DNA from: Okeania sp.
GTDB lineage: Bacteria; Cyanobacteriota; Cyanobacteriia; Cyanobacteriales; Microcoleaceae
Direction of reading: 5' to 3'
DNA: 25,965 bases
Assembly: GCF_035285525.1 (NCBI RefSeq)
Contig: NZ_JAYKGW010000081.1
Span: 1 to 25,965 of the forward strand
Numbering within the stretch: the stretch's first letter is position 1; every line of letters starts with the position of its first letter. Under the pieces are notes generated by a model, which worked only from the letters and a program-made list of their open reading frames with translations, had not been told where the DNA came from and did no database searches. The position numbers and the translations under genes are program-made. Shown piece after piece: positions 1 through 17,384 of the stretch.

Positions 1-702
1 CGGAAGAATAACGAGTACAAAAACAAAGATGACATTGGTTTCACCAGAGGTGTTCGTAATACTAATGACTTCTACAACTTTACTCTAGATTCCGATAGCA
101 ACTTCACCCTCACATTAGACCAATTGAAGCGTGATGCTAATGTGATGGTACTCGATGACGAGGGCAACATGGTTCTGAGTGGGTTCAACCCTGGTAATGC
201 TCCAGAATTTGTGAATGGGGAATTAGAAGCTGGAGACTATACTGTTCAAGTATTTCCAGTGGGAGCAGCTAAGACTAACTACTTCCTGAAAATGAACGCC
301 GATCCTATTACTGGCGGTGGTGGTGGAGTGCCAGACCCAGATCCAGTTCCAGAACCTGGAGAAGACCCCGATGGTACTCTAGCTACTGCTAATGACTTGG
401 GCAACTATCAAATGAGCGCACAAAGTGGTGCAGTTGGCTTTAGCGAAGACGGATATGATGATCTTAACGATTATTATAAGTTTACGCTTCCAGCAGCCGA
501 TAATGTGCAGATAGTTTTGGACGATCTAGACCAGAATGCTGATTTAAGTCTCTTAGCTAGCGATGGGTCTATACTCTATACCTCTTCTGAATCAGGTATT
601 GACCCTGAGTTTATTAATGTCTCATTAGATGCTGGTGATTACTACCTGCAAGTTACAGCGGTTGGCAGCGCCCAAACAGATTATACGGTTCAATTTTTCT
701 AA
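1..702 (+). CDS. 3' end of a PPC (pre-peptidase C-terminal, PF04151-type) repeat protein; the 5' part lies upstream of the window
   Basis: Frame 1 is open from nt 1 (RKNNEYKNKDDIGFTRGVRNTNDFYNFTLDSDSNFTLTLDQLKRDANVMVLDDEG...) to TAA 700-702, so the listed ATG at 124 is internal. There are two PPC-type units (D-x-Y-x-F-x-L ... NAD/N-h-x-h-x-D-x-x-G ... GDY-h-x-V ... Y-x-h) joined by a GGGGVPDPDPVPEPGEDPDG linker. The repeat type matches the next gene. Confidence 0.8.
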   Translation, partial: RKNNEYKNKDDIGFTRGVRNTNDFYNFTLDSDSNFTLTLDQLKRDANVMVLDDEGNMVLSGFNPGNAPEFVNGELEAGDYTVQVFPVGAAKTNYFLKMNADPITGGGGGVPDPDPVPEPGEDPDGTLATANDLGNYQMSAQSGAVGFSEDGYDDLNDYYKFTLPAADNVQIVLDDLDQNADLSLLASDGSILYTSSESGIDPEFINVSLDAGDYYLQVTAVGSAQTDYTVQFF

Positions 703-770
703 GCTCGTCTTGTAGTAAGCGTTTTAGCACTAAAATAATTAACTTTGTAGAGATTGCTTCGGCTAGTAAA

Positions 771-799
771 TTGACTCTTTTTTTAAGGTTGAGTGTAAT
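771..799 (+). promoter_or_regulatory. candidate sigma70-type promoter for the 918-4352 gene
   Basis: TTGACT (771-776), 17 nt, TGTAAT (794-799), about 120 nt upstream of ATG 918. An AAGGAAG Shine-Dalgarno-like motif lies at 905-911. Motif match only. Confidence 0.35.
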
Positions 800-917
800 A
801 TTACCGCCTCCCTGCGGACAAGCACAATCTTTTTAATCGGTACTTTATTTAGTTGCAAATCCCTTACTACTAATTAACTCAAACTAAAAATTTTCAACAA
901 AACAAAGGAAGAAAACA

Positions 918-3900
918 ATGGCAGAGATTCTTCAAGGTTCCTCTAATGGCTCCTGGGGCAAAGCTGACCCCGGGCCCAACCCCAGTCCCAAACTTTATCC
1001 TGGAGACCCCGATACCACTTTTCGTTGGGGAAAACCAGCTTTCGATGACTTAGAGCCAAATGGTTTAATCTTTACTGGAGGAAGTTTTACTGGGGAAATT
1101 GGTGAGCAGTTTGAAATAGGTAAGCTCAACTACTTTAATGGTTCTATTTATGTAGAAACAGCAGTAGAGTCTGTACCACTGGAAATCGAATTAGATTTAG
1201 ACGTTCCCACAGATGAGACTACTACTTTCACTTTCGATTTAGACTTAGATACGACTTTAGATACCTCCGATGACATAGACCTGTGGTCTGATTTCGTCTA
1301 TTTTCCAGAAGTGTTGCCATCGGAAACTTTCAACATTGATGGGAAAAAATACACCCTAGAATTAACTGGCTTTAGTAAAGATGGGGGGGAAACTCTAGAA
1401 AACCGTTTCCGAGTCAGGGAACAAGAAGCAGATGTAGCCAGTTTATTTGGGAAAATCACCAAGGCGCCTATAGGCGATGTCAAAGATCCGAATGCTTACC
1501 CAGAGGGTGCTGTTGATATTGGCGACTTGAACAAACGAACCAAAGAATACCGTAATACCGAGGAAATTGGTTTTACTGAAGGTGGTATTCGTGACTTACA
1601 GGATTTCTACAGTTTTAGTCTGAGTAAGGAAAGTGAGGTTGACATCACTTTAGACCAACTCAAGCAAAATGCTAACGTGGAAATTGTGGATGGAGATGGC
1701 AGCACAGTATTATTCCAATCAGTAGAACTGAACCGGAAAAAGGAAAATATTACCGAAAATTTAGAACCAGGTGAATATTTCATCCGGGTTTATCCTGAAG
1801 GAGATGACCGCACTAAATACCGCTTGGGTGTAAATGCTGAAGCACTGGACAACGAAAAAGACGAAATTGCTACTGCGAAAGACCTGGGCAATATTGGACT
1901 GGAAGAGGTAACTGAACTCGACCGGGTAGGCTTCGGCAAGGGTAAAAACCGGGACGAACAAGACTACTACAAATTCAGCCTCAACGAAAAAAGCGACTTT
2001 TTCCTGACTTTAGACCAACTGAAAGGAAATGCCAACGTTGAAGTTTTAGATGATGATGGTACTACCGTTCTTTACCAGTCTCTTAACAGTAGCCGTAAAG
2101 CAGAAAAGATTCGCGAAGAATTAAATCCTGGAGACTATTACGTTCGTGTCTTTCCTCAAGGTAGTGCCAAGACAGACTATCGGTTGGGTCTAAGTGCCAA
2201 TCCGATGATTGATGAACAGGATGACAAATCACCAGGTATTGATTTAGGAACAGTTACTGAGCTGACCCCTGTCGGCAAAACTGATAAGCTCGGTAGCAAC
2301 AAAGACCAGGTGGACTGGTACAACTTTACTATACCTGTAGAGAGCGATGTCAACATTACCTTAAATAAACTCAGGGCAGACCTGAACATAGAAGTATTCG
2401 ATGACGGTGGTGAAATAGTTGATGATAGCACGAACACTGGTAAAAAGACAGAAACAATTGAATTAGAAGAGCTAGACGCGGGAACTTACACAGTGAAAGT
2501 TTCTCAAGGTAAGGCTGGTGCTAAGAGTAACTATCGCTTGGGTATAACTGCTGCTGTTCCTTACGTTGACGACTATCCCACTCCAGAAGAATCTCTGGAT
2601 TTAGGGTTGGTTCCTGAAGGGGAGACAATAGTCTTCAACAACGAGATGGGTCGTACAGTGGGTCGTTCTGGTCGGGACGAACGGGACTGGATTAAGTTTG
2701 AAGTTTCTGAAGAGAGCTTTGTTGATATCAACTTAGGTCGTCTGCGTCAAGATCTAAATATGACATTGTATGATGATGATGGCGCTACTGTTCTCAATAA
2801 TGCCCGCAGTAAGAGTCGCAAAAGCGAAAATCTTGGTGTCTTTTTGGAAGAGGGTACTTACTACGTTGAAGTCAAACCTCAGGATAATCAGCGTAGTGAC
2901 TATCGGTTCTCAGTTAATATAGAGGGACTTCCTGATGACGGAGGGTTTGAAGTTGGTGACCTTCTAGCTCAAGGTGGTAGCTACAGCAAGTTAGGGGAAA
3001 AAATCGGCTTTACTTCTAGCGGAATCCGCAACGTGGTCGATCGTTATAAATTTACCCTCACTGAGGAGAGCGATGTAGAGATTGACCTGACAGGGTTGAA
3101 AGCAGATGCTAACCTCGCCTTGTACAGTGACGATGGTACTTTCTTACGTGATTCCCGTCAGAGTGGTCGTAGCAACGAAAACATTAGCGACACTCTAGAA
3201 ACTGGTGATTATTATGTATATGTAACACCACAGGGCAATACTAAAACCAAGTACGATTTGGATATTTTTGCTACTGGTGCAGGTCCTGACTTAGATGGTG
3301 GTCCCGTACCGGAAACCTCTTTGTACAATGATATTGGGACTCTCACTGAAGATTACAGTAAGTTTGAGAATGTTGGTTTCGGAACAGGTACTAATCGTGA
3401 CGAAGTAGATTTCTATCGCTTCATCCTCAGCGAAGAGAAGACCCTGAATATCACTTTAGAAAATCTGACCGATAACATCAATCTGGAATTGCTGGATAAC
3501 TCTGGTGCAACCATTTTTGATTCTCGCAACTCTGGTAAGAAGAACGAACAAATCAATGAAGATTTAGATCCTGGTACTTACTACATAGGTGTTGAGCCTC
3601 AAGGCAGCGCTCGTGGTGCTTACAACTTGAATATTACTGGTGCAGGGTCTGGTTCTAGTATCGATCCAGACGGTGGTAAACCTCCAGAAAACGTCAATGA
3701 TATCGGCGTTCTGACTGCTTACGAAGAAAGCGATACCATTGGTTTCACTACAAGCTATCGCGATGTTAATGACTACCGTAAGTTCACTTTAAGTCAGGAG
3801 AGCAAGGTTGACATCAATTTAACTAACTTGAATGCCAACGCTGACTTAGAGTTACTTGATAGCGATGGTCTGACATTATTAAACCGTTCTGCTAAAGGTG

Positions 3901-4352
3901 GTAGCACCGATGAAAAAATCAATACTACTTTAGAAGTTGGCGATTATTATGTGCGGGTATTACCGAAGGGTGCTGCTAAAACCAGCTATCAGCTAAATAT
4001 GAGTGCAAATGGAGTAGGGGGAACAGAAGACGACACCCCACCAGGAATTTCTCTTGGTACTGTTACTGATTCACTCACTCAGGGAGGCAACCTTGGCTTC
4101 GGTTCTGATACTAATGACTATTACAACTTTGATGTTGCTACTCCTGGTTTTGTTAGCGTCGCACTTGATGGACTCATTGCCAACGCTGACCTAGAGCTAT
4201 ATGATAGCACTGGTAACGTATTAATTGGTAGTTCCACCAACTCTGGAAGCACTGCTGAAGAAATTGATACTTTCTTGAATGCTGATACCTACGTTGTTCG
4301 TGTATTTGGTCAAGGTAATCAAACTTTCTATGACTTAAGCGTTTCCATTTAA
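918..4352 (+). CDS. large acidic repeat protein: choice-of-anchor-like N-terminal domain plus 8 tandem PPC domains, with no catalytic domain and no signal peptide
   Basis: 1144-aa ORF with an SD-like AAGGAAG 7 nt upstream of the ATG. Residues 1 to ~185 (FRWGKP...LIFTGGSF...FEIGKLNYFNGSIY...YTLELTGFS) resemble what I recall as the choice-of-anchor K N-domain; this needs an HMM check. Eight units of ~105-115 aa follow, each with DxYxFxL, LxxNAN/D-h-E-h-xDxxG, G(D/T)YY-h-xV and YxL signatures typical of PPC domains. The N-terminus MAEILQGSSNGSWGK has no hydrophobic stretch. Confidence 0.85.
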   Translation: MAEILQGSSNGSWGKADPGPNPSPKLYPGDPDTTFRWGKPAFDDLEPNGLIFTGGSFTGEIGEQFEIGKLNYFNGSIYVETAVESVPLEIELDLDVPTDETTTFTFDLDLDTTLDTSDDIDLWSDFVYFPEVLPSETFNIDGKKYTLELTGFSKDGGETLENRFRVREQEADVASLFGKITKAPIGDVKDPNAYPEGAVDIGDLNKRTKEYRNTEEIGFTEGGIRDLQDFYSFSLSKESEVDITLDQLKQNANVEIVDGDGSTVLFQSVELNRKKENITENLEPGEYFIRVYPEGDDRTKYRLGVNAEALDNEKDEIATAKDLGNIGLEEVTELDRVGFGKGKNRDEQDYYKFSLNEKSDFFLTLDQLKGNANVEVLDDDGTTVLYQSLNSSRKAEKIREELNPGDYYVRVFPQGSAKTDYRLGLSANPMIDEQDDKSPGIDLGTVTELTPVGKTDKLGSNKDQVDWYNFTIPVESDVNITLNKLRADLNIEVFDDGGEIVDDSTNTGKKTETIELEELDAGTYTVKVSQGKAGAKSNYRLGITAAVPYVDDYPTPEESLDLGLVPEGETIVFNNEMGRTVGRSGRDERDWIKFEVSEESFVDINLGRLRQDLNMTLYDDDGATVLNNARSKSRKSENLGVFLEEGTYYVEVKPQDNQRSDYRFSVNIEGLPDDGGFEVGDLLAQGGSYSKLGEKIGFTSSGIRNVVDRYKFTLTEESDVEIDLTGLKADANLALYSDDGTFLRDSRQSGRSNENISDTLETGDYYVYVTPQGNTKTKYDLDIFATGAGPDLDGGPVPETSLYNDIGTLTEDYSKFENVGFGTGTNRDEVDFYRFILSEEKTLNITLENLTDNINLELLDNSGATIFDSRNSGKKNEQINEDLDPGTYYIGVEPQGSARGAYNLNITGAGSGSSIDPDGGKPPENVNDIGVLTAYEESDTIGFTTSYRDVNDYRKFTLSQESKVDINLTNLNANADLELLDSDGLTLLNRSAKGGSTDEKINTTLEVGDYYVRVLPKGAAKTSYQLNMSANGVGGTEDDTPPGISLGTVTDSLTQGGNLGFGSDTNDYYNFDVATPGFVSVALDGLIANADLELYDSTGNVLIGSSTNSGSTAEEIDTFLNADTYVVRVFGQGNQTFYDLSVSI

Positions 4353-4395
4353 TAGTGGTAGTAGGAGGGCGATAGTCTTTCTACCTCATTTTGAT

Positions 4396-4418
4396 AGAAT
4401 AGACAAACTGTCTATTCT
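4396..4418 (+). terminator. possible rho-independent terminator after the PPC-array gene
   Basis: AGAATAGAC (4396-4404) pairs with GTCTATTCT (4410-4418) around a 5-nt loop, followed by a T-rich stretch (gcctttaattttcctatttt). The stem is AT-rich and there is no clean U-run. Confidence 0.35.
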
Positions 4419-4491
4419 GCCTTTAATTTTCCTATTTTCAGCATTGGTAGTGCATCTAGTGTTTTCACACAAAACTTAAGTATAGGAAGCT

Positions 4492-4557
4492 AGAAACCTG
4501 GTTTTTCCTAGATGTCTATTGTCAAAAACAATGATTTATCTGGGAAACCGGGTTTCT
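4492..4557. repeat. small dispersed repeat: AGAAACC(n)GG ... tagatgtctattgtcaaaaacaatgattta ... ACCGGGTTTCT
   Basis: Long-range inverted arms flank a core that recurs almost verbatim at 23011-23060 (agatgtttattgtcaaaaacaatgatttac). The AGAAACCCGGTTTCT palindrome also occurs at 11110-11125 and 17219-17232. Confidence 0.7.
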
Positions 4558-4788
4558 TTTTATTTATCCCCCTTTGATGCGCTATCCCTGATCAGGAACT
4601 CCTGAAACCCTTGTGGGAGCAGGGGAGAAGGGAGAAAACATCATACTAGCTAAGTAAAACTGCTTAAGCGATCGCTCTTCTAATGTGTTTTTTTATACAT
4701 TTTTCTCCAGAAAAAGGCGAACTAAGACTTACACATAACTGGTCATTAATGCCCAAGTTTTATGAAAAGCGAGAGATGTTTATAAAGC

Positions 4789-4874
4789 ATAGCTTTGAAA
4801 GGGGGGCAGAAGAGATAGCTTTGAAAGGGGGGCAGAAGGTATCCCCACAACCCCCCTTTGAAAGGGGGTAGAAG
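4789..4874 (+). repeat. 26-bp-period tandem repeat (ATAGCTTTGAAAGGGGGGCAGAAG x2 plus a degenerate palindromic third unit)
   Basis: Units at 4789-4812 and 4815-4838 are identical. 4853-4874 contains cccctttgaaagggggtagaag. Related gaaagggggg motifs occur at 21850-21880 and 21975-22000. This repeat explains the spurious ORF 4683-4871. Confidence 0.75.
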
Positions 4875-4945
4875 ATGCAAAGTTTTTCATTAACTAATTA
4901 TGCGGATTCTATATCAGTCCTGATTGATTAGTACAGCCGAAAATT

Positions 4946-4972
4946 GTAGGGGTTTGGTCTCCAAACCCCCCA
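4946..4972. repeat. GTAGGGGTTTGG-loop-CCAAACCCC hairpin repeat
   Basis: A 9-bp stem GGGGTTTGG/CCAAACCCC (4949-4957 and 4961-4969). The same motif occurs at 12445-12501. Confidence 0.6.
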
Positions 4973-5014
4973 CGAGTTCATAGTCGTTATTCCATATTCC
5001 TCAAAAAAAAAATT

Positions 5015-6967
5015 ATGGCCAAGACAACTAAAAGCCAAATAACCAAAGTAGTAGATAACAAAGGCGGTTTAGACCCAGACATAGTAGACGTAACTATTGT
5101 ACCTGGAGATGATGTCACAATTGACATCACTGCCAACGTTACGAAAAACAGTTCCACAAAGCAACCTCTAGACCTAGTTTTTCTCGCCGACCTTTCCGGT
5201 TCCTATAGCGATGACTTGCCAGTATTGCGGGACTTAGTTCCCAAGCTGGTTTCCTCTGTTCGAGATGTCCAGCCAAATAGTCAATTTGGTTTAGCATCTT
5301 ATGTTGACAAACCAAAGTCTCCCTTTGGCAATAGCGGGAGCGGGGACTATGTATATAAGACAGAGCAAGAACTAACCAAATCTAAGAACGATTTTCAAGA
5401 CGCGATGGATAGCTTGAAAACTAGAGTTGGTGGGGACTTTCCAGAATCTCAACTTGAGGCATTAATGCAGGTAGCTCTCAGGGAGGAAGAAGTAGGCTAC
5501 CGTAAGAACTCTCGCAAGGTGGTGGTTCTCTCTACTGATGCTGACTATCACGAAGCAGGAGACGGAAAGAAAGGAGGTATCACAACTCCTAATAATGGGG
5601 ATGCAGTTCTTGATGGTACACCAGCAGGTACAGGGGAAGATTATCCCAGTGTTGCTCAAGTCAGAGATGCTTTGCAAGAAGCAGGTGTGGTTCCGATTTT
5701 TGCTGTTACTAGCAATCAGAAAACAAACTACGAAAAACTGGTTGATAAATTAGGTTTTGGTGCAGTAGAAGTATTATCGCGAGATAGTTCTAACTTAGTC
5801 AAAGTAGTAACCAATGGTTTAGAAGAAATCTTCAGCGATTTAACCATGGTATCTCAAAGTGATGATTTTGGTTACGTTAAAAAAATTAAGCCTGCTACTT
5901 ACGAAAACGTCCGTTCTGGGGAAAGTCGCACTTTTGAAGTGACACTGGGTACAAAAGATATGACTGCTGGTGAAGACAGTCTTTCTTTAGAAGTATTGGG
6001 TTACGGAGAAACTGTGGTTAATGTTAGCACTTTTGTGAATACAGACCCTGTAGCGAGAAATGACAAGAATAAGAAAAAACTCACCACCGATGAGGGTAAA
6101 AAATTGATCATTAGACCAGGAGTATTACTGGCAAATGATACAGATGCAGATGGTGACAAGCTAAGTATTACCAAGGTCAGCAATGCAGACAATGGTAAAG
6201 TGAAACTTGCCAAAAACGGTAAAATAACTTTTACCCCTGATAAAAACTTTAGTGGTAACGCAAGTTTTGAATACATTGTTGATGACGGCAATGGAGGTAC
6301 TGATACTGCTAAAGTTACTGTCAAAGTAGAGGAAGGTAATAATAAGCCAGTTGCAAAGGATGACGCCACTTTTTTCTTCTGGAATAAAGCTCGTACTATT
6401 GAAGCAGAAGATTTATTAGAGAATGATAAGGATAAAGATGGCGATAAGTTGACTATTACTAAAGTCAGCAAACCTACAAACGGAACAGTGAAATTAGATA
6501 AAAAAAGTGGTGAAATAACTTTCACTCCTGATACAGACGTTATCAAGGGGAGTTTTGAGTACACTATTAGCGATGGGAAAGGTGGTCGAGATACGGCTAA
6601 AGTAGAGCTGGGAGCGCTCGGAGACCGTTCGGCGATCATGCCTCGTTCTGCTAAAGTAGATGACTTAACTGGTGCAGAAGAAGGAGAACGCTTTGTTTAC
6701 GACGACTTGCTAGATGCGGGCAACAATATCACTAACTTTGAAGTAGGTGACGATATCATTGTTCTTAGCAATGTATTAGGAAGTGTTGGTTATGAAGGCA
6801 GTGATGCGATCGCTGACGAGTATGTTCGAGTTGTATCCAAAGGTGCAGGAGCGATGGTGCAGATTGATCCCGATGGTCCAGAAGGTCCTGAAGGCTTTGC
6901 TCCATTCCTTTCTGTGAGAGGAGTAACAGCAGAAGTTTTAAATGACTCTAGTAACTTCGCGTTTTAA
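5015..6967 (+). CDS. secreted adhesin-like protein: integrin-beta-like hybrid/betaI (VWA) head, 2 cadherin-like repeats and a type I secretion C-terminal target domain
   Basis: 650-aa ORF. Residues ~50-275 align along their length with my memory of the human integrin beta3 betaI domain (details in findings): [62 protein letters not shown]...[19 protein letters not shown]. Residues ~344-438 and ~443-532 are two [18 protein letters not shown]...G.V.L...G.ITFTPD...G..SFEY...DG.GG.DTAKV units of cadherin-like/VCBS type. Residues ~545-650 ([16 protein letters not shown]...[16 protein letters not shown]...YVRVV...[10 protein letters not shown]...FLSVRGV) look like the VC_A0849-subclass T1SS C-terminal domain. 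There is no N-terminal signal peptide. Confidence 0.85.
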   Translation: [650 protein letters not shown]

Positions 6968-6987
6968 TCTAACCAGAGAAAGATGAT

Positions 6988-7030
6988 ATAGGTAGTACAG
7001 GCAAAATGCCTATGCTACCTATGTTTTTTT
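6988..7030 (+). terminator. rho-independent terminator after the integrin-beta-like gene
   Basis: ATAGGTAG (6988-6995) pairs with CTACCTAT (7015-7022), with an inner AGGC/GCCT pairing. A T7 run follows at 7024-7030, about 20 nt after the stop codon. Confidence 0.6.
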
Positions 7031-7071
7031 AGTTATAGCGTCTATTCAGAGAAACAGGGATAATCACTTCA

Positions 7072-7178
7072 TACAGAGCTTTTCAAATGAATGAACCACA
7101 TCGCCATAACCTTGCATCTTGTAGGGACGTTCCATGGAACGTCCCTACTGTGGTTTACTAATTATGAAAACCGCTGTA
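7072..7178 (+). mobile_element. MITE family A copy (107 bp)
   Basis: Terminal inverted repeats TACAGaGCTTTTCA ... TGAAAACCGCTGTA. The core is a perfect 28-bp palindrome GTAGGGACGTTCCATGGAACGTCCCTAC (7121-7148). A second copy lies at 8211-8358 and a core-only copy at 11048-11075. Confidence 0.75.
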
Positions 7179-7249
7179 ATCCCCTGCTTACTTGCTAAAG
7201 GCGATCGCGACTTCCACCAACATCTTGAAAAACCATAGCATCAGATTTG

Positions 7250-7302
7250 CTGAAAAAAGCAGAGTTTTGAACCCACCCCTAACCCTTTTCAGGAGGGGAA
7301 AA
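7250..7302 (+). repeat. dispersed repeat family F (…AGTTTTGAACCCACCCCTAACCC.T.TCAGGAGGGGAAA)
   Basis: Matches the reverse complement of 8901-8951 with a few mismatches or indels. The two copies are in inverted orientation around the decayed 7.3-8.9 kb zone. Confidence 0.65.
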
Positions 7303-7569
7303 TAGAGAAAGTAGAAAGAATAAATGTTCCTTGATTTTTATATCCAACTCTTACCCAAAATCCTAATTTTTTGGTAGCTCAAGCTGGAAAAGTTACACTT
7401 TTTTTCACTCCTTAAAAGCACTTTTCTTGATCTGTAAATCTCAAAGTATTTACAGCTTTCTACTATATCATAATTCTACCTTATCGTCACTACTCTTCAG
7501 CCAATGCTATTGCCAAAGCTACTCCGTTGAAGTATAATTAATAATTTATTTAAAAATAAAAAAATTATT

Positions 7570-7674
7570 ATGACAACCGAACAAAAAATAGCTAATTTAT
7601 TTCAAATGACAGATGAAGTTTGGGCACGTTATGCTAATCCTTGGAGTGGATTAACTAGATTTTCTATATTACTT
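7570..7674 (+). pseudogene. N-terminal remnant of a small conserved membrane-protein gene, truncated by MITE insertions
   Basis: MTTEQKIANLFQMTDEVWARYANPWSGLTRFSILL resembles the (H/Y)ANPWS...TR N-terminus of a small membrane-protein family I recall as DUF6653 (uncertain). The reading frame runs straight into MITE C at 7675, MITE B follows at 7788, and no continuation is visible. Confidence 0.3.
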
Positions 7675-7763
7675 AGGACTTACGCAAAGGGACTATATAT
7701 AGCGTATCGGTGCGTGACACTGACGTTAACGCACCCTACTAATAGCGTTCATGCGTAAGTCCT
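7675..7763. mobile_element. MITE/SDR family C copy (89 bp), with AGGACTTACGCA ... TGCGTAAGTCCT termini
   Basis: Perfect 12-bp terminal inverted repeats at 7675-7686 and 7752-7763. TTACTT is present on both flanks (7669-7674 and 7765-7770). The same termini recur at 11088-11137, 17204-17243, 22924-22969 and 22981-23072 with different internal cargo. Confidence 0.7.
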
Positions 7764-7787
7764 GTTACTTTTAATTATTGTTTCTAT

Positions 7788-7905
7788 TAGACATCTCCAA
7801 AAATAAAAAATCAAATCAATTCTTATCCATAAATTATCAATTATTTCTTCCTGTTCCCAGTTAAGTGTTCTTAGTTAAGTGTTCCCTCTTGTCTGGAGAT
7901 GTCTA
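7788..7905 (+). mobile_element. MITE family B copy (118 bp), with TAGACATCTCCA ... TGGAGATGTCTA termini
   Basis: 12-bp perfect TIRs at 7788-7799 and 7894-7905. The internal sequence is roughly 80% identical by eye to the reverse complement of 22061-22181. Confidence 0.75.
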
Positions 7906-7946
7906 TTTGGATATGAACATATACTATATAACCGGATTCTATATCA

Positions 7947-8004
7947 GGGGCGGGTTTATGTAAATTCTAGAATAAGCATGAAAATTTCTGATCAAACCCG
8001 CCCC
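7947..8004. repeat. inverted repeat GGGGCGGGTTT ... AAACCCGCCCC (11-bp arms, 36-nt loop)
   Basis: Arms at 7947-7957 and 7994-8004 are perfectly complementary. It is immediately preceded by a fragment (7906-7946) related to MITE E at 21173-21272 (atgaacatatac / aaccggattctat). Confidence 0.55.
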
Positions 8005-8057
8005 TACCCTATGCACTATTTTAGCTGTGTTAATCCACTACTGAACTGATAACTGAA

Positions 8058-8821
8058 ATGATTTGTACCTCATCCAAACAACTGAACTTTGCAGAATTTA
8101 TTACCCAATATGGGGACAATACAAGCTATGAATTAATTGACGGAGAACTAAGAGATATGCAGCCTAATGGTGTTTACGAAGCTGTTGCTGGAAGTATTGC
8201 TGGTAGAATTTACAGCGCTTTTCAAATGAATGAACCACATCATCATCACCAAAATCTTGTAGGGACGTTTCGCTGCGCGACATGAAAAGCATTTTTGTTA
8301 TGCAACGTCCCTACTGTGGTTTACTGATTTCTCGGGAATCGTAATGAAAACCGCTGTATGTGGAAGTTTTTCGGAATAATTTCAACTGGTTGATTCCCAA
8401 AAATTCTGTGGTGCGGGCATCTTGCCCCCGTACTGTAGGTGAAATAACTGCCCTACGTCCTGATGTGATTGTTTTAGACAAATCAGAACTTATTAAAGAA
8501 CCTCTTTGGCAAAAAGAACCAGTAATTTGTAATGGTAATATTATTAAACTTGTCGCAGAAGTTGTTAGTAAAAATTGGCAAGATGATTATGCTATAAAAG
8601 TATAAGAATATGCTTTTTTAAATCTTTCAAAATATTGGATTGTGGATTTTATGGGGTTAGGTAGTTTACAATTTATTGGTAATCCTAAACAACCTACTTT
8701 TACAATTTTTCAGTTAGTTAATGGTGTGTATCAACAACAGCAATATCGTTTGGGAGAACCCATTTATTCCTATCTATTTCCTAATTGAAAATTGCGACTC
8801 GACGATATTATGCCAATTTAA
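8058..8821 (+). pseudogene. Uma2-family (DUF820, PF05685-type) endonuclease pseudogene, disrupted by a MITE and two in-frame stop codons
   Basis: N-part: MICTSSKQLNFAEFITQYGDNTSYELIDGELRDMQPNGVYEAVAGSIAGRIY. After the MITE the same protein continues from 8360: VEVFRNNFNWLIPKNSVV...ALRPDVIVLD...LVAEVVSKNWQDDYAIKV. It then hits TAA (8603-8605), continues EYAFLNLSKYWIVD...YRLGEPIYSYLFPN, hits TGA (8786-8788), and ends KLRLDDIMPI before TAA 8819-8821. The motifs PD-V, E-V-V-S, D-Y..K..EY...YWIVD are typical of Uma2. Confidence 0.75.
8211..8358 (+). mobile_element. MITE family A copy (148 bp) inserted in the Uma2 gene
   Basis: TIRs TACAGCGCTTTTCA ... TGAAAACCGCTGTA match at 13 of 14 positions. 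The central palindrome is split by about 40 extra nt (8259-8313). TA is present at both ends. Deleting 8213-8358 in silico restores the Uma2 reading frame. Confidence 0.8.
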
Positions 8822-8900
8822 AATACTGACTAATGTAAATATTTTTTGCTTTTTTCCTATCCCAAAATATGCTGTATATTTTTTCCCAAACCCCCCACAC

Positions 8901-8951
8901 TTTCCCTCCTGAGAGGGGTTAGGGGTGGGTCTCAAACTTGGCTTTGTTCAG
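8901..8951 (-). repeat. dispersed repeat family F, inverted copy
   Basis: tttccctcctgagaggggttaggggtgggtctcaaacttggctttgttcag is the reverse complement of the 7250-7302 type. Confidence 0.65.
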
Positions 8952-8990
8952 TAAACCCTAATTATTCATTATCAATTAATGAACTTACTG

Positions 8991-9006
8991 TCTATATTAA
9001 TATAGA
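8991..9006. promoter_or_regulatory. 16-bp perfect palindrome TCTATATTAATATAGA upstream of the kinase gene
   Basis: The sequence is perfectly self-complementary and ends 23 nt upstream of ATG 9030. It could be an operator or part of a promoter. It is AT-rich, so chance occurrence is not negligible. Confidence 0.25.
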
Positions 9007-9029
9007 GATAGTAGCCTAATCTTGTTAAT

Positions 9030-10997
9030 ATGAGTTATTGCCTCAATCCTCAATGCCAAAATCCTCAAAATCCTGAAGGGACATTATATTGCCTTGCCTG
9101 TGGAGCAAAATTGCTGCTGAGAGAAAGATATCGCCCTATGAAACCTATCGGTAGAGGTGGGTTTGGTCGGACTTTTCTGGCTGTAGATGAAGATAAACCT
9201 TCTCATCCCCCTTGTGTAATTAAACAATTTTTACCTCAACATACTGGGGACCCTAAAAAAGCTGCCGAGTTATTTCAACAAGAGGCAGTTAGATTAGATG
9301 AACTTGGTAAACATCCACAAATTCCTGAATTATTAGCTCACTTTGAACAGGATAATAATCAATATTTAGTACAAGAATTTATTGATGGTTCTAATTTAGC
9401 TGCAGAGTCAATTAAAAGGGGTCCTTTTAATAGTAATCAAATTAAACAAATTTTAAATGAATTATTACCAGTTTTACAATTTATTCACGAACATAAAGTA
9501 ATTCATCGAGACATTAAACCAGAAAATATTATTCGTCGTAATTCTCCTCCACAAGTTACTGGATGGATGAATAATACTAATCAATTAGTTTTAGTTGATT
9601 TTGGGGCAGCTAAAGTGATTACTGGAACTTCCTTAATGCAGCCAGGAACAATTATTGGTAGTCCGGAATATGTTGCTCCAGAACAGGTAAGAGGTCATGC
9701 AATTTTTGCCAGTGATATCTATAGTTTGGGAGTAACTTGTATCTATTTATTAACTCAAGTATCTCCTTTTGATTTATTTGACGTAATGAAAGATAAATGG
9801 GTATGGCGAGATTATTTAAGTCAACCTATTAATAGTGTTTTAGCCAGAATTATTGATAGGATGCTGGCCACTAATCCGCAAATGCGTTACCAGTCTGCGG
9901 CGGAAGTAATGAAGGAATTAAATCCACAACAGGAAACTCCTGTTCTCCCTAATATTCCGGCACCGACACCATCTCCAACTCCTATTCAACCAACTATATC
10001 CACATACACACCTCCGCAACCGCAAGCAAAACCAAAGACCAGTTCGATGACAGCACCGCCTCATATTGTGCAACCGACGGTTATTCCTCAACCAAAACGG
10101 TCAACTTGGAAATGTGTTTTGACTTTGACCGGACATTTTGACTCGGTGAATACGGTAGCGTTTAGTCCCAATGGAGAAATATTGGCGAGTGGGAGTCGCG
10201 ATAAAACTATTGAAATTTGGGATATGAAGAAAAGCAAACGTTGGTTTACTCTGACTGGTCATGGTGACTCTGTGCAAGCGGTCGCGTTTAGTCAAGATGG
10301 AGAAATGTTGGCGAGTGGGAGTCGGGATCAGACTATTGAAATTTGGGATATGAAGAAAGGCAAACGTTGGTTTACTCTGCTTGGTCATTCTGACTGGGTG
10401 GATACGGTGGCGTTTAGTCCGGATAGTCAAATGTTAGCAAGTGGAGGTAGAGATAAAACTATTGAAATTTGGAATTTGCGGAAAGCAAGGCGCTGGTTTA
10501 CTTTAAACGGGCATGACGATCGGGTTTATAGTGTTACTTTTAATCAAAATGGGGAATTTTTGGCAAGTGGTGGTCGCGACCAAACTATTAAAATATGGAG
10601 TTTGGAAAAGGGGAAAGAGTTATTTTCCATTAAGGGTCATTCTGACTGGGTGCGATCGCTAAGTTTTAGTCAAGATGGTAAGGGTTTGGCAAGTGGGAGT
10701 CGGGATGGCACGATTAAGTTATGGCAGGTTTATGGAGGGGAACTTATTTCCACACCTGTACAAAATTTGAAATATGGTATGAGTGATGTTTTATCGGTGA
10801 CGTTTAGTCCGAATGGCAAAATAGTTGCGGGTGGATATCGGAATGGGAATATTAATTTATGGGATGCTCTCACTGGGGAATTATTGGAAACATTGAATGG
10901 TCATAAGAGTGATGTGTTTTCAGTGATGTTTAGTCAGGATGGTAAGAGTTTAGCAAGTGGGAGTAATGATAAAACCATTAAAATTTGGCAACAGTGA
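9030..10997 (+). CDS. Ser/Thr protein kinase with N-terminal 4-Cys zinc ribbon and 7 C-terminal WD40 repeats
   Basis: CLNPQCQNPQNP...YCLACG zinc ribbon. Kinase motifs GRGGFGRTF, VIKQF, HRDIKPEN, DFG and SPEYVAPE are present. A Pro-rich linker (PNIPAPTPSPTPIQP...) follows, then seven GH...(ASG)S.D.TI.IW(D/N/S/Q) repeats. Confidence 0.9.
   Translation: MSYCLNPQCQNPQNPEGTLYCLACGAKLLLRERYRPMKPIGRGGFGRTFLAVDEDKPSHPPCVIKQFLPQHTGDPKKAAELFQQEAVRLDELGKHPQIPELLAHFEQDNNQYLVQEFIDGSNLAAESIKRGPFNSNQIKQILNELLPVLQFIHEHKVIHRDIKPENIIRRNSPPQVTGWMNNTNQLVLVDFGAAKVITGTSLMQPGTIIGSPEYVAPEQVRGHAIFASDIYSLGVTCIYLLTQVSPFDLFDVMKDKWVWRDYLSQPINSVLARIIDRMLATNPQMRYQSAAEVMKELNPQQETPVLPNIPAPTPSPTPIQPTISTYTPPQPQAKPKTSSMTAPPHIVQPTVIPQPKRSTWKCVLTLTGHFDSVNTVAFSPNGEILASGSRDKTIEIWDMKKSKRWFTLTGHGDSVQAVAFSQDGEMLASGSRDQTIEIWDMKKGKRWFTLLGHSDWVDTVAFSPDSQMLASGGRDKTIEIWNLRKARRWFTLNGHDDRVYSVTFNQNGEFLASGGRDQTIKIWSLEKGKELFSIKGHSDWVRSLSFSQDGKGLASGSRDGTIKLWQVYGGELISTPVQNLKYGMSDVLSVTFSPNGKIVAGGYRNGNINLWDALTGELLETLNGHKSDVFSVMFSQDGKSLASGSNDKTIKIWQQ
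10185..10436 (+). repeat. intragenic 126-bp tandem repeat (WD40 units 1-2 and 2-3)
   Basis: 10185-10262 and 10311-10388 differ at 6 of 78 positions by hand alignment. The following ~48 nt of each unit are much more diverged. Confidence 0.8.
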
Positions 10998-10999
10998 TA

Positions 11000-11023
11000 C
11001 AGTTATCAGTTATCAGTTATCAG
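11000..11023 (+). repeat. heptamer tandem repeat (CAGTTAT)x3 plus a partial unit, STRR-like
   Basis: Starts 2 nt after the kinase TGA (10995-10997). Related TAGTTAT/ATCAGTA heptamers occur at 17110-17144 and 14251-14264. Confidence 0.8.
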
Positions 11024-11047
11024 CAGTTTTCATTCTGGTAAACTACT

Positions 11048-11075
11048 GTAGGGATGTTCCATGGCACGTCCCTAC
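11048..11075. repeat. core palindrome of MITE family A (GTAGGGAtGTTCCATGGcACGTCCCTAC)
   Basis: Same 28-bp palindrome as 7121-7148 with 2 substitutions. A hairpin here could also act as a 3' structure for the kinase gene. Confidence 0.65.
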
Positions 11076-11087
11076 TAGATTATCATC

Positions 11088-11137
11088 AGGACTAAAGCCA
11101 CGCGAACCCAGAAACCGGGTTTCTTTGCGTAAGTCTT
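11088..11137. repeat. SDR family C-type unit enclosing the AGAAACCGGGTTTCT palindrome
   Basis: AGGACTaaaGCc ... CAGAAACCGGGTTTCTT ... TGCGTAAGTCtT. The termini are related to 7675-7763. Confidence 0.6.
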
Positions 11138-11147
11138 GATCGTATAA

Positions 11148-11189
11148 AATCCAGATAATTACTATATCTAAGTCATTGCGAAATGACTT
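11148..11189. repeat. dispersed repeat family G (AATCCaGATAATTAcTAT.. CTAAGTCATTGCG...)
   Basis: Shares aatcc(a/g)gataatta.tat..ctaagtcattgcg with 25721-25752. Here it closes as the palindrome AAGTCATT-gcga-AATGACTT (11170-11189). Confidence 0.6.
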
Positions 11190-11246
11190 TAATAGTTAAT
11201 GTTTATCCGAACATAATATTGTAGTTTTCATTATCAATACTCTTCA

Positions 11247-11274
11247 CTACTCCCTACTCTCTACTCCCTACTCC
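11247..11274 (+). repeat. heptamer tandem repeat (CTACTCC/T)x4, STRR-like
   Basis: Ends 4 nt from the cheB stop codon (11279-11281, minus strand). In cheB mRNA sense it reads GGAGTAG repeats. The same heptamer occurs at 19632-19652. Confidence 0.8.
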
Positions 11275-11278
11275 CTGA

Positions 11279-12397
11279 TTAATTATTAATTATCATAAGT
11301 AATTTCTGACTAATATCATTGATTGGCAAAATATATTGAGCAGCTCCCAAAACAATAGCTTCTTTAGGCATACCAAATATGATAGAAGTAGCCTCATTTT
11401 GAGCAATTGTCAATCCACCAGATTGAGCGATCGCCTGCATTCCATCTGCTCCATCTCGACCCATTCCTGTTAGTAAAACCCCTATAGAAGAGGAGCCATA
11501 AAATTTAGCAATTGAATTAAAAGTGACAGTAATTGAAGGGCGATGTCCTCCAATTGCTGGTGTTTTTGAACAGACAAATTTACCCCTATTATCTAATTCT
11601 AAATGATGCTTTTCAGGTGGGAAATAAATTACGCCAGCTTTTGGCAATTCTCCGGAAATAGCAATTTTTATTGGTAGTTGACATCCATTAGCTAACCAAT
11701 TTATTAAACCATTTAAAAATCCATTACTAATGTGTTGAACACAAATTATTGGTAGAGGAAAAGTTGAAGGTAAATTATGAAGAATAGTTTTTAAAGCTTG
11801 AGGACCACCAGTAGAAGCTCCGATTGCTAAGACTTTAATATTTTTGGCAGAACGAGGATATTTAAGTATAGTTTTAGGAGTATCTACAAGATAATTTTTA
11901 ACTAGCTTATCTTGTATATTTCTGATAAATAATTGTTGTTGACGTTCTTGGTTAATCTGCCGACGATGTAGGGTAAAAACTTTAACCCCAGAAAGAATTT
12001 TAATCTTATTAATTAATTCTTGCTTAATCGCATCATAATCTGAATTTAATCCAGTTTCTGGTTTAGGAAAAACATCAACAGCTCCTGCCTCTAAAAGTTG
12101 AAAAACATTTTCGGTATCATGTTCTTGAACGGAGTTGCTAATAACTAAAATTGGTCGTGGGTATTCGTGCATAACTTCCCTAGTAAATTCTAATCCATTC
12201 ATAAATGCCATGTGTAAATCAGTACAAATTACATCTGGCTCGATTTTTGGGATTAGTTTTAATGCCTCTAAACCATTTTGAGCTGTACCTACAACTTCAA
12301 TTTCTGGAGAGGTAGCAAAAATTCTTTTGAGAATTATTAAAGCTACTGGTGAATCATCAACAACTAATATTTTAATGACTTTTCTTTTCTTTGTCAT
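11279..12397 (-). CDS. cheB: chemotaxis response regulator protein-glutamate methylesterase/deamidase
   Basis: N-terminal receiver (ILVVDDS, phospho-acceptor context VICTDLHM). C-terminal CheB_methylest-type domain with the catalytic Ser in IGASTGGPQAL, His in CVQHI and Asp in TGMGRDGADG. 372 aa. Confidence 0.9.
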   Translation of the reverse strand: MTKKRKVIKILVVDDSPVALIILKRIFATSPEIEVVGTAQNGLEALKLIPKIEPDVICTDLHMAFMNGLEFTREVMHEYPRPILVISNSVQEHDTENVFQLLEAGAVDVFPKPETGLNSDYDAIKQELINKIKILSGVKVFTLHRRQINQERQQQLFIRNIQDKLVKNYLVDTPKTILKYPRSAKNIKVLAIGASTGGPQALKTILHNLPSTFPLPIICVQHISNGFLNGLINWLANGCQLPIKIAISGELPKAGVIYFPPEKHHLELDNRGKFVCSKTPAIGGHRPSITVTFNSIAKFYGSSSIGVLLTGMGRDGADGMQAIAQSGGLTIAQNEATSIIFGMPKEAIVLGAAQYILPINDISQKLLMIINN

Positions 12398-12444
12398 TTG
12401 ATTTATTCAGGAAGTAAGAAGTAAAAAGTAAAAAGGAATTTTTC

Positions 12445-12501
12445 GTAGGGGTTTGGAAACCAAACCCAAGTAAAAATCGGATTTGAAAAGCAAACCCCTA
12501 C
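12445..12501. repeat. GTAGGGGTTTG ... CAAACCCCTAC inverted repeat with a nested GGTTTGG-aaa-CCAAACC hairpin
   Basis: Outer arms at 12445-12455 and 12491-12501 are perfectly complementary, with an inner 8-bp stem at 12449-12467. It lies in the divergent cheB/MCP intergenic region and has the same motif as 4946-4972. Confidence 0.6.
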
Positions 12502-12729
12502 AATTTTTTTTAACTTACTTATTATATCAATTATACTATTAAATTAATCAAGTAGTTCCAGAGGAAATAAATATAGAATAGATGTTAGTATGCTGTAATA
12601 CTAACTTTTAGTTCTCCTTGGAGACTAATTTTTTCTTCCAGGGTAATGAGATAATGAGTTAATAATTTATAGCTGATAGCTAACGGCTGTTTGCGCAGCA
12701 TTACGCAGTAAACACTCACTAATAGATCA

Positions 12730-14172
12730 ATGAATCTTAGACAAGTTTTACCTGTAGGAGTAATCATAATTATTGCTACATTTGGAATTAGTAATATTTT
12801 TTCTCAAAGTAGTATTCGTACTTTGAAAGAATCTTCTGAATGGGTTGCTCATACCTATCAAGTTAAAAGTTTATTAAAAGGATTAGAAAAAACTTTAGTT
12901 GATGCAGAAACAGGACAACGGGGATTTATTTATTCTGGTCAAGGAAATTTCCTCGAACCATATAATTTAGCTCAACAAACAATTGATGATAATTTAGATG
13001 AACTTCAAGCTAAAATATCTGATAATCCTGAGCAATTAAAAAGATTGGCTAAAATTGCAGATCTAACAGAATCTAAAATATCAGAATTAAAAGAAACTAT
13101 AAAACTAAAAAGAGCTGGTGAAGAAAAAAAAGTAAGACAGTTAATATTATCTGGTTTAGGTAAACAGATAATGGATGAAATTAGACAAAAAATTGATGAG
13201 ATGATGGCAGTAGAAGACCAACTATTGAATGAAAGAAAAAAACAAGCAAAACAGGCTTTTCAGTTAGTCATAATTATTTCCTGGAGTAGCTTGATGATAG
13301 TTGTGATAGTAAGTATAATTATCATATTTTTGATTAATAAAATTGCTATTCAACCTATTAATATTATAGCTAATTTGATTGCTACTTCTACTAATGAAAT
13401 TTCTGCTACAGTCGAACAACAAGAACACACTGCTTTTGTACAAGCTAATTCTGTTCATACTACCACTAACAATATGGATGAGTTAGGAGCATTTTTTCGT
13501 CAGTCTTCCCAAGAAGCAAATGCAGCTAATAATACTGCTCAATTAGCTTTAGAAGCAGCAGAAAAAGGAAGCGATACTGTCTGTGAAACATTTGATGCTA
13601 TGAATAATTTAAAAGTAAAAGTAGAGGCGATCGCTCATCAAATTTTTAGATTAAATGATCAAATAAATCAAATTGGTCAAATTTCTCAAATGGTCAGTAA
13701 TTTAGCAAATCAAATAAATATGTTAGCTTTGAATGCGAAGGTAGAAGCGGTGCGTGATGGAGATAATACTCAAGGTTTTTCTGTTGTTGCTGCTGAAATT
13801 AAGAAATTGGCAATACAGAGTAAATTATCTGCGGAAAAAATCAGAATTTTAGTAGAGGAAATTCAAGATTCAATTCATGCAACAGTATTGGTAACTAAAG
13901 AAGGAATTAGAACTGTAGAATTGGGAATGAAAATAACAGATCAAACAACTGCATCTTTTTCTAGAATAACTAAGTCGGTAAATAATGTAGTTATTAATAA
14001 TCAACAAATTTATTTGAATATTCAACAGCAAGTTCATGGTATTAAACAAGTATTAGAAGCAATGGAAAATATTAATCAAGTAGCAAAGGAAACGGCATTA
14101 GGAATTGGTCAAACTCATTCAGGTGTGGAGAGTTTAAAGAAAGCAGCAGAAAAGTTGAAAAATATAGTATAG
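12730..14172 (+). CDS. methyl-accepting chemotaxis protein with a CHASE3-type periplasmic sensor and a divergent hairpin tip
   Basis: TM1 VLPVGVIIIIATFGI. CHASE3-like WVAHTYQVKSLLKGLEKTLVDAETGQRGFIYSGQGNFLEPYN. TM2 LVIIISWSSLMIVVIVSIIIIFLI. The MCP signalling domain reads NMLALNAKVEAVRDGDNTQGFSVVAAEIKKLA. 480 aa, collinear with the MCP at 19655-21106. Confidence 0.85.
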   Translation: MNLRQVLPVGVIIIIATFGISNIFSQSSIRTLKESSEWVAHTYQVKSLLKGLEKTLVDAETGQRGFIYSGQGNFLEPYNLAQQTIDDNLDELQAKISDNPEQLKRLAKIADLTESKISELKETIKLKRAGEEKKVRQLILSGLGKQIMDEIRQKIDEMMAVEDQLLNERKKQAKQAFQLVIIISWSSLMIVVIVSIIIIFLINKIAIQPINIIANLIATSTNEISATVEQQEHTAFVQANSVHTTTNNMDELGAFFRQSSQEANAANNTAQLALEAAEKGSDTVCETFDAMNNLKVKVEAIAHQIFRLNDQINQIGQISQMVSNLANQINMLALNAKVEAVRDGDNTQGFSVVAAEIKKLAIQSKLSAEKIRILVEEIQDSIHATVLVTKEGIRTVELGMKITDQTTASFSRITKSVNNVVINNQQIYLNIQQQVHGIKQVLEAMENINQVAKETALGIGQTHSGVESLKKAAEKLKNIV

Positions 14173-14238
14173 TTAATAATGAATAATTAATGAGTTTAAT
14201 TCTTCGGTCGTTAATTATTGAAAAGGAGCTTTAAAATT

Positions 14239-14421
14239 TAATCCTATTGATAACTAATAACTGAAAAAAGGGAATTGACAAAAAAAATTTGACATGATAC
14301 TATAAGCATAATGGAGAAGGTGCGCTCATATATACTATATTGAATTTATTTCAATTAGAAAGCTTTTTCTATGATTTCCTCATTTTTTTGAATATTTCTC
14401 TCTTCATTCCTTCTTCCTTCT
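14239..14421 (+). repeat. 183-bp direct repeat, copy 1
   Basis: Identical to 14481-14663 at 182 of 183 positions (g14306 versus a14548). Compared base by base by hand. Confidence 0.9.
14275..14303 (+). promoter_or_regulatory. near-consensus sigma70 promoter inside repeat copy 1
   Basis: TTGACA (14275-14280), a 17-nt spacer ending in the extended -10 TG (14295-14296), then TACTAT (14298-14303). ATG at 14311. Confidence 0.5.
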
Positions 14422-14480
14422 CAAACTCAAATAATCTCTGAGTAAGTTTAAACATTTATAAGTTTCCTCAACTATTTGTC

Positions 14481-14663: not shown

Positions 14664-14676
14664 TATTTCCTCCTTC

Positions 14677-17094: not shown

Positions 17095-17109
17095 AATTAG
17101 TTATAAATT

Positions 17110-17144: not shown

Positions 17145-17203
17145 AGACTGACGCCAAGCAACCAAAAAACTGGGTTTATTGTCGTGATATTGCTGATAAA
17201 TTC

Positions 17204-17383: not shown

Positions 17384-17384
17384 T

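Follow-up and report, generated by a model that had tools for sequence, protein, structure and literature searches.

A protein with an integrin beta-type head in the cyanobacterium Okeania sp., a probable single-chain adhesin encoded beside PPC-repeat proteins

Searches for the origin of integrins usually lead back to the unicellular organisms most closely related to animals. We describe here a bacterial gene, the product of which has an integrin beta-type head: the open reading frame (ORF) at 5015..6967 on the forward strand of a complete 25,965-nt contig from a metagenome-assembled genome (MAG) of Okeania sp. (the whole contig is the stretch that was analysed and is called the window below). 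The 650-residue protein is recorded as 'cadherin-like domain-containing protein [Okeania sp.]' (WP_324236081.1 / MEB3340664.1), a name that conceals the integrin-type head and its context.

Cyanobacterial 'integrin beta chain-like proteins' (e.g., gi 113475558, of Trichodesmium erythraeum) were listed by Yutin 2009 (PMC2651865), and the integrin-beta-like protein of T. erythraeum was described by Johnson 2009 (cited by Chouhan 2011, PMC3192720); the latter paper gives its betaA/betaI domain as homologous to that of integrin beta, with neither epidermal growth factor (EGF) repeats nor a transmembrane segment. In Kang 2020 this protein is placed in a tree and carries only one of the integrin beta domains, and a 2023 preprint (10.1101/2023.10.19.562135, citing Sebe-Pedros 2010) treats Trichodesmium as the "lone" prokaryotic case and attributes it to horizontal transfer. 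These sources bear out the statement in an earlier note on this DNA that integrin-like domains had already been noted in cyanobacteria. The Trichodesmium and Okeania proteins both come from the same order of filamentous marine cyanobacteria and are compared here by description only; the Trichodesmium protein did not surface in the scans made here. In the accessible passages of the open-access literature, no discussion was found of a bacterial hybrid domain, of the metal sites known as ADMIDAS (adjacent to MIDAS, the adhesion site that depends on a metal ion) and SyMBS (synergistic metal-binding site), of a cadherin-like/RTX-tail architecture, or of the breadth of the family.

The Dictyostelium Sib proteins (SibA-E) resemble the Okeania protein in joining a VWA domain that has integrin-beta features to bacterial-type repeats, but unlike it they belong to the type I membrane proteins and have tails that bind talin. 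Myxococcus xanthus CglD, according to the same preprint (10.1101/2023.10.19.562135), is a surface gliding adhesin with Ca2+-dependent function and a VWA/MIDAS region similar to the betaI domain of integrin beta3. It differs in being a lipoprotein with EGF-like and COMP-like Ca2+ regions and in having HHpred-level similarity, whereas the similarity of the Okeania protein to integrin beta is strong at the plain sequence level, with the hybrid domain included.

The Okeania gene starts at 5015, which is the earliest start codon that the preceding in-frame stop allows; the frame cannot be extended any further upstream, and orthologues begin at the same place. The protein is acidic (isoelectric point, pI, 4.6) and free of cysteine; as had been noted earlier, it has no signal peptide, and there is also no transmembrane segment and no hydrophobic segment (maximum KD19 = 1.06). 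It begins directly in the hybrid domain, and its parts are as follows.

5015..6967, + strand: whole gene of the integrin-beta-like protein, 650 aa (WP_324236081.1 / MEB3340664.1).
5036..5158, + strand: hybrid domain, N-terminal half, residues ~8-48 (AlphaFold2 strands 8-13, 23-28 and 33-41; Foldseek superposition).
5159..5836, + strand: betaI (integrin beta VWA) domain, residues 49-274 (Pfam, PDB sequence matches, BLASTP to beta3).
5837..6034, + strand: hybrid domain, C-terminal half, residues 275-340 (helix 261-274 leads straight into five beta-strands; hybC profile).
6035..6331, + strand: cadherin-like / Big_9 / tandem-95 repeat 1, residues 341-439 (Pfam and NCBIfam profiles).
6332..6619, + strand: cadherin-like / tandem-95 repeat 2, residues ~440-535 (Pfam and NCBIfam profiles).
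6650..6964, + strand: C-terminal tail, residues 546-650, likely a secretion/folding module of the type I secretion system (T1SS) kind (tail profile, RTX neighbours, AlphaFold2 fold).

In its first 340 residues the protein is truly homologous to the integrin beta head, that is, to a hybrid domain with an inserted betaI domain. The Pfam model Integrin_beta (PF00362) matched residues 49-274 with 161.4 bits (E = 4e-47; profile positions 3-246 of 248; cut-off 24.8), and the generic VWA model gave 36.6 bits, so that Integrin_beta is ahead by 125 bits, in the direction that the earlier note had proposed; VWA_2 and VWA_4 were both under their cut-offs. The vWA_SIBA-E model of the Sib proteins (PF24909) matched residues 213-337 with 38.5 bits, which is far weaker than the 161 bits of Integrin_beta. 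A sequence search of the PDB returned integrin beta chains only, the best of which was human beta-2 (E = 4.8e-35, residues 19-274), and in that search the alignment to integrin beta-8 spanned residues 24-334, with both flanks of the betaI domain included. BLASTP against the ectodomain of human integrin beta3 (a sequence identical to PDB 9e8b_B residues 1-478) aligned 291 columns at 28% identity (E = 2e-31) and reproduced each of the segment pairs by which the betaI domain had been said to be collinear with beta3. Signature segments of integrin beta that are kept include VDKP, PE(S/G)xxxAxMQ, TDAxxH, PN(N/D)GD, DYPS and IFAVT.

The AlphaFold2 model of residues 1-345, which was made template-free and from an alignment of bacterial relatives only, had a mean pLDDT of 93.3 and a pTM of 0.86. 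Three beta-strands (8-41) come first in the model, then a Rossmann-like alpha/beta domain (52-274) and, directly after the last helix, five strands (276-339); this is how the inserted domain is arranged in the integrin hybrid/betaI pair. When the model was compared with the PDB by Foldseek, integrin beta chains made up all of the top 50 matches, and their TM-scores, normalised to the query, were 0.80-0.84 over ~370-385 columns. The superposition runs over the full length, and therefore both hybrid halves fit as well as the betaI domain, which agrees with the earlier reading of the flanks as two halves of a hybrid domain. A profile of the C-terminal hybrid half (hybC), built solely from RTX-free members because an earlier one with RTX columns had given spurious repeated matches in RTX proteins, scored 85 bits at residues 276-338. 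The predicted head is in a closed-like hinge state, since closed headpieces fit it better than open ones, which superposed less well (TM-scores of 0.59 for 2vdk_B, 0.61 for 3ze2_D and 0.60 for 9p95_B).

Relative to metazoan integrin beta chains (human beta-2, -3, -7, -6, -1 and -8; PDB 5e6r_B, 3fcs_B and 4um8_B), the Okeania protein shares the hybrid domain with its inserted betaI domain at 28-29% identity and TM-scores of 0.80-0.84, and the two have in common the MIDAS DxSxS/E/D residues, the ADMIDAS DD pair and four of five SyMBS ligands. Unlike them, it is without PSI, I-EGF, beta-tail, transmembrane helix, NPxY and any cysteine, has a shorter specificity-determining loop and Gly in place of the SyMBS Asn, and no alpha subunit was found for it. 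It also differs from the membrane-anchored integrin beta chains in that it is probably secreted through a bacterial C-terminal signal. The marks of an integrin beta subunit (PSI, I-EGF stalk, beta-tail, transmembrane helix and NPxY) were not found by Pfam, and there are zero cysteines. The Okeania protein is therefore not an integrin subunit, as it has none of the PSI, EGF, tail, transmembrane and NPxY elements.

The metal-site residues were mapped by the beta3 alignment and evaluated in aligned relatives of the protein. The MIDAS residues D59, S61, S63, E144 and D175 align with beta3 D119, S121, S123, E220 and D251 and are kept in 88-98 of 98 relatives, and the ADMIDAS residues D66 and D67, to which the carbonyl position of R256 in the Okeania protein is to be added, align with beta3 D126 and D127 and are Asp in 82/98 and 90/98 relatives, respectively; the earlier assignment of both sites was correct. 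For the SyMBS, D98, D141, P143 and E144 align with beta3 D158, D217, P219 and E220, but the position of the Asn (beta3 N215) is occupied by Gly139, and Gly is found there in 86 of 94 relatives. The site thus retains four of its five protein ligands, one side-chain ligand being gone family-wide, whereas the SyMBS consensus given in Kang 2020 (D/E ... N-D-x-P-x-E) includes the Asn. Overall, the acidic positions of the three sites are kept in 82-98 of 98 aligned relatives. The earlier claim of all three metal sites stands for the MIDAS, the ADMIDAS and the D141/P143/E144 part of the SyMBS and not for the SyMBS Asn; judged by residues, the MIDAS and ADMIDAS sets are complete and the SyMBS is slightly reduced.

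Downstream of the head are two cadherin-like repeats, as had been described before. Cadherin_5 (PF17892; 145.4 bits) and Big_9 (PF17963; 140.2 bits) matched in two copies each, the tandem-95 model tand_rpt_95 (NF012211) scored 115.6 bits relative to a cut-off of 90 in the region of residues 341-535, and the two repeats are 61% identical to each other over 67 residues.

The tail that follows holds one degenerate RTX unit (12 residues), then the motif ITNF, two variable positions and a 14-residue segment, and lastly a terminal NFAF. Against a profile of 64 post-RTX tails taken from relatives of the head, the tail scored 16.4 bits, whereas 200 shuffles scored 6.5 bits or less, and the alignment is collinear (LTGxxGxxFVY, ItxF..GdDiivLs, iDpDG, terminal xxNFaF). 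The extreme C-terminus, …NDSSNFAF, fits the acidic/polar-then-hydrophobic pattern of the RTX-type tails of the family. A word-indexed search with the tail gave a single match. The profile used for an exhaustive search included ~35 positions of the preceding cadherin-like repeat, and most of its 4115 matches were giant repeat proteins, and so only matches covering profile positions ~40-146 were used. In proteins matching the tail proper, the module is usually at the extreme C-terminus, and in 9 of 10 tail relatives examined it adjoins HemolysinCabind repeats, with three also matching the serralysin C-terminal domain. The AlphaFold2 model of the tail had a pLDDT of 79 and a pTM of 0.74, and its top 18 PDB matches by Foldseek were all serralysin-family proteases or alginate-epimerase proteins (serralysin, AprA, PrtC, psychrophilic alkaline protease, the AlgE6 R3 module and alginate epimerase/lyase; TM-scores of 0.58-0.68), with noise after these. 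We therefore have moderate confidence, on the basis of the profile, the neighbours of the module in its relatives and the predicted fold, that the tail is a degenerate RTX/serralysin-type C-terminal module.

The protein also resembles the RTX/serralysin T1SS substrates (serralysin, AprA, PrtC and AlgE) and the tandem-95 giant adhesins in having no signal peptide, in its acidic, Cys-free composition and in its tandem-95/cadherin-like repeats, and with the RTX/serralysin substrates its tail has the serralysin/AlgE-like predicted fold of the C-terminal module in common. Those relatives of the head that are proteobacterial are genuine RTX proteins and adjoin T1SS operons. Unlike the RTX/serralysin substrates, the Okeania tail has a single degenerate RTX unit, with no GGxGxD and no match to TIGR03661, HemolysinCabind or Peptidase_M10_C.

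We consider it likely that the protein as a whole is an extracellular, divalent-cation-dependent, single-chain adhesin that is exported by a T1SS and acts with PPC-repeat proteins, one of which is encoded directly upstream. In this reading, a T1SS encoded elsewhere in the genome would recognise the C-terminal module, such that export would be independent of Sec and of a signal peptide, and the exported protein would fold in seawater that is rich in Ca2+ and Mg2+. The integrin-type head would then be displayed as a single chain on a short stalk of two tandem-95/cadherin-like repeats and would operate alone, with no integrin-alpha-like partner. By analogy with integrins, a Mg2+ at the MIDAS would bind a ligand carboxylate (of Asp, Glu or an acidic sugar), and the flanking Ca2+ sites, i.e., the ADMIDAS and the reduced SyMBS, would tune the affinity. 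The earlier description of a calcium- and magnesium-dependent ligand-binding adhesin holds for the head and for the residues of the sites; metal occupancy, adhesin function and Ca/Mg-dependent ligand binding are what homology would lead one to expect.

Several observations weigh against parts of this reading. The SyMBS Asn of integrins also touches the ligand Asp, and with its replacement by Gly, regulation and ligand geometry may differ from those of integrins. The tail had been taken for a VC_A0849-type T1SS domain, and this was not borne out: there was no TIGR03661 match at E <= 10 with either the whole protein or the isolated 118-aa tail, Pfam on the isolated tail gave noise only (no HemolysinCabind or Peptidase_M10_C match), and no canonical GGxGxD repeat is present in the protein. 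In some proteins (P0168, P0172, P0187 and P0216) a tail-like module of ~100 residues is internal or repeated and is followed by RTX repeats, which argues that the tail is a folding domain rather than a proven secretion signal. No gene for a T1SS ABC transporter, membrane fusion protein or outer membrane protein was found in the 26-kb contig, and the 111 genes around 14 hybrid-type loci (those encoding a hybrid domain) include no recurring HlyD or OEP gene.

Serralysin-family proteases and AlgE-type epimerases are classic type I secretion substrates, an acidic and Cys-free composition is typical of T1SS cargo, and T1SS genes are often unlinked to those of their substrates. Type I secretion is the best inference for the Okeania protein and a reasonably likely one, given the absence of a signal peptide and of cysteine, the pI of 4.6 and a tail that is related to post-RTX tails and has a serralysin/AlgE-like predicted fold. 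The earlier proposal of T1SS export thus stands on the RTX/serralysin-type tail rather than on TIGR03661, with no T1SS genes in the contig. The RTX-type members at two other loci (L030 and L064) have ABC and HlyD genes upstream, and in L064 a TolC-like OEP gene is downstream. Because other members would be exported either by Sec with PEP-CTERM/exosortase or as RTX proteins by a T1SS, an extracellular role of the head in general is supported.

It is rather unlikely, in our estimation, that export or location is of another kind, such as an uncharacterised route shared with the PPC-repeat proteins, release by lysis or in vesicles, or an intracellular location. The missing T1SS genes, both in the contig and near the other hybrid-type loci, would fit such an alternative, as would the lack of canonical RTX repeats and of a TIGR03661 match; moreover, the adjacent PPC proteins are also without signal peptide and RTX tail, and the cluster may use a common route. 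However, the resemblance of the tail to serralysin/AlgE C-terminal regions (in predicted fold) and to post-RTX tails (in sequence), the C-terminal …NDSSNFAF pattern, and the cargo-like composition of a protein whose T1SS genes could well be unlinked all argue for type I secretion.

The question of an alpha partner bears on whether the head acts as a single chain. The earlier note had stated that there is no alpha-subunit-like partner in the window, and indeed no FG-GAP gene was found there; nor does one recur in 111 neighbours of the 14 hybrid-type loci. The residue Lys185 of the Okeania protein lies at the position of beta3 R261, the basic residue that plugs the alpha propeller; this position is not conserved in the family, where it is mostly Ala, Pro, Ser or Thr. 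Compared with that of beta3, the specificity-determining loop is ~16 residues shorter, and it has no disulfide.

The protein might instead be the beta half of a true integrin-like heterodimer, the alpha subunit of which would be an FG-GAP beta-propeller protein from another part of the Okeania genome. Integrin-type seven-bladed propellers exist in bacteria, including cyanobacteria, according to Chouhan 2011 (PMC3192720) and Kang 2020, a table of the Trichodesmium transcriptome mentions 'a cassette of integrin genes', and Lys185 sits where the finger residue that enters the propeller is found in integrins (beta3 R261 and the corresponding beta2 Lys). We nevertheless regard a heterodimer as improbable, in view of the FG-GAP results in the window and at the hybrid-type loci, the variability of the K185 position and the shortness of the loop that contacts alpha. 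In addition, many members of the family embed the betaI domain in one long RTX polypeptide, which points to autonomous function.

That the integrin resemblance is superficial (an ordinary VWA domain), or comes from eukaryotic contamination or a dead recent transfer, has next to no probability: in its favour is only the general abundance of VWA domains in bacteria, whereas Integrin_beta beats VWA by 125 bits and the whole head, both hybrid halves included, superposes on integrins, the gene lies in a cyanobacterial contig amid chemotaxis, kinase-WD40, QueC and GDE genes with orthologues of 73-83% identity that have the same neighbours, and the metal-site residues are strongly conserved across ~100 relatives.

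The proposed single-chain adhesin is encoded next to PPC-repeat proteins, and the features upstream of it are as follows.

918..4352, + strand: upstream PPC-repeat protein, choice-of-anchor K head plus eight PPC repeats, 1144 aa (profiles; synteny; fusion).
124..702, + strand: a further PPC domain at the contig start.

The upstream protein has a choice-of-anchor K head (NF038131, 137.6 bits), and no signal peptide was found in it. In the closest genome match (L002), an orthologue of the Okeania protein that is 73% identical over its full length has the same PPC gene directly upstream, the pair being flanked by more PPC-repeat genes, and orthologues in other cyanobacterial genomes, with the same neighbours, are 73-83% identical. 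In Lyngbya sp. CCY1209 (L003:9854-13753) and a Limnospira MAG (L004:8793-12677), the integrin-type head is fused to a PPC array; the head of this fusion is 67% identical to the Okeania head, and its PPC array is 62.5% identical to residues 191-1143 of the upstream protein. The fusion amounts to a natural exchange of heads when set against the two separate genes of the window, and, together with the synteny in L002, it makes the integrin-type and choice-of-anchor K heads interchangeable tips on the same stalk. Four or five PPC-repeat genes are found in a row in L002-L004, all apparently without a signal peptide. The head would accordingly be one of a swappable set carried on different stalks and anchors (PPC arrays, PEP-CTERM, RTX arrays and DUF642), and the Okeania protein would probably take part, jointly with the PPC-repeat proteins encoded beside it, in cell-surface or filament/sheath adhesion.

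Downstream of the gene, a 2-kb stretch without a long ORF (6968..9029) contains gene remnants, namely a Uma2-family endonuclease in three frames (8058-8285, 8360-8605 and 8642-8788; Uma2 50.6 bits on the joined pieces) and an N-terminal piece, 33 residues long, of a DUF6653 protein (7570-7758). The region 9030..21106 encodes a Ser/Thr kinase fused to seven WD40 repeats and then a chemotaxis-like cluster, consisting of CheB, a CHASE3 methyl-accepting chemotaxis protein (MCP), a CheA-CheW-receiver hybrid, a dCache MCP and a CHASE3/4HB MCP. Such clusters control motility or phototaxis in filamentous cyanobacteria. The G+C content is 41-43% in positions 1..7000 of the window, which hold the adhesin genes, 42% at 10-11 kb (the WD40 repeats) and 28-32% over the chemotaxis-like cluster (12000..22000). 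Rfam and tRNA scans of the window found nothing.

Relatives of the head in a large protein collection formed ~100 clusters at 90% identity, nearly all from cyanobacteria or metagenomes, and among their C-terminal parts are PEP-CTERM (in combination with a signal peptide at the N-terminus), RTX repeats and DUF642. Some are named 'Integrin beta chain VWA domain/PEP-CTERM motif' by JGI, and database pipelines already tag PF00362. A scan of GTDB (one genome per species) with the single Okeania protein gave no match, and a scan with two peptide patterns from a trimmed 10-sequence betaI alignment gave 64 loci, such that the betaI module is present in at least 64 species-level genomes of several phyla. 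The loci are 23 cyanobacterial, 28 alphaproteobacterial, 5 gammaproteobacterial and 2 betaproteobacterial, plus 2 from unclassified Pseudomonadota and one each from Thermoguttaceae, Myxococcales, Chlorobiaceae and Microcella, and the host proteins range from ~400 to >5,000 residues. The earlier note had underestimated how common such proteins are: the Okeania protein belongs to a sizeable family in bacteria and is no rarity.

The hybC profile found the C-terminal hybrid half after the betaI domain in the Okeania window and at 15 loci out of the 64, every one of these 15 being cyanobacterial, and the corresponding N-terminal profile (hybN) matched cyanobacterial members only. There was no hybrid match in the other 49 loci, although very divergent hybrid domains could have escaped the profile; in most of these 49, the betaI domain is embedded directly in RTX arrays, which have as many as 56 repeat motifs. 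Clustering of the neighbours of all 64 loci gave only generic recurring families (histidine kinases, response regulators and ABC ATPases), and true T1SS operons were present at L030 and L064 only.

One head-bearing ORF, in a Myxococcales MAG (L035:7892-10810), has 111 cysteines in 972 residues, compared to 0-10 in other members, so that either its architecture is Cys-rich and very different or the ORF was called wrongly in a genome of high GC content. The single eukaryotic match to the bacterial-type head was a transcript of Polyplicarium translucidae in EukProt (P0080), the product of which has a signal peptide and a tandem pair of betaI-like domains, contains cysteines and is without a hybrid domain. 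In the rough tree described below, its first domain takes a basal position in the bacterial clade, and it may be a real bacterial-type protist gene or contamination.

The comparison of bacterial and metazoan betaI domains that had been proposed earlier was made as a rough neighbour-joining tree, in which human beta-2 and beta-3 fall outside a single bacterial clade within which phyla are intermixed. The intermixing suggests that the betaI module has been transferred among bacteria; with two human sequences and one protist sequence besides the bacterial ones, the tree is too thin for the direction of transfer between bacteria and eukaryotes. A doubtful but possible reading is that the integrin beta head is an old, autonomous bacterial adhesion module without an alpha subunit, reused on many secretion and anchor scaffolds, and that it was the source of the eukaryotic head, as opposed to a one-off transfer from a eukaryote to Trichodesmium. 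If so, the head may even have kept the allosteric switch by which integrins change between a closed and an open hybrid angle.

The Okeania protein is a further member, with a new architecture, of the kind first noted in Trichodesmium, and the family is wider than the Trichodesmium-only picture in the papers cited here. The full head occurs in many cyanobacteria, and the betaI domain alone extends through Proteobacteria and other phyla inside RTX adhesins; this bacterial spread, together with the conserved metal-site residues, reopens the question of the direction in which the module moved. The head, as a Cys-free single chain of ~340 residues that should be easy to produce in E. coli, is a possible minimal model of betaI/hybrid mechanics without alpha. 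For the organisms themselves, the integrin-type head and the PPC-repeat proteins make up a candidate adhesin cluster in colony- and mat-forming genera of marine cyanobacteria.

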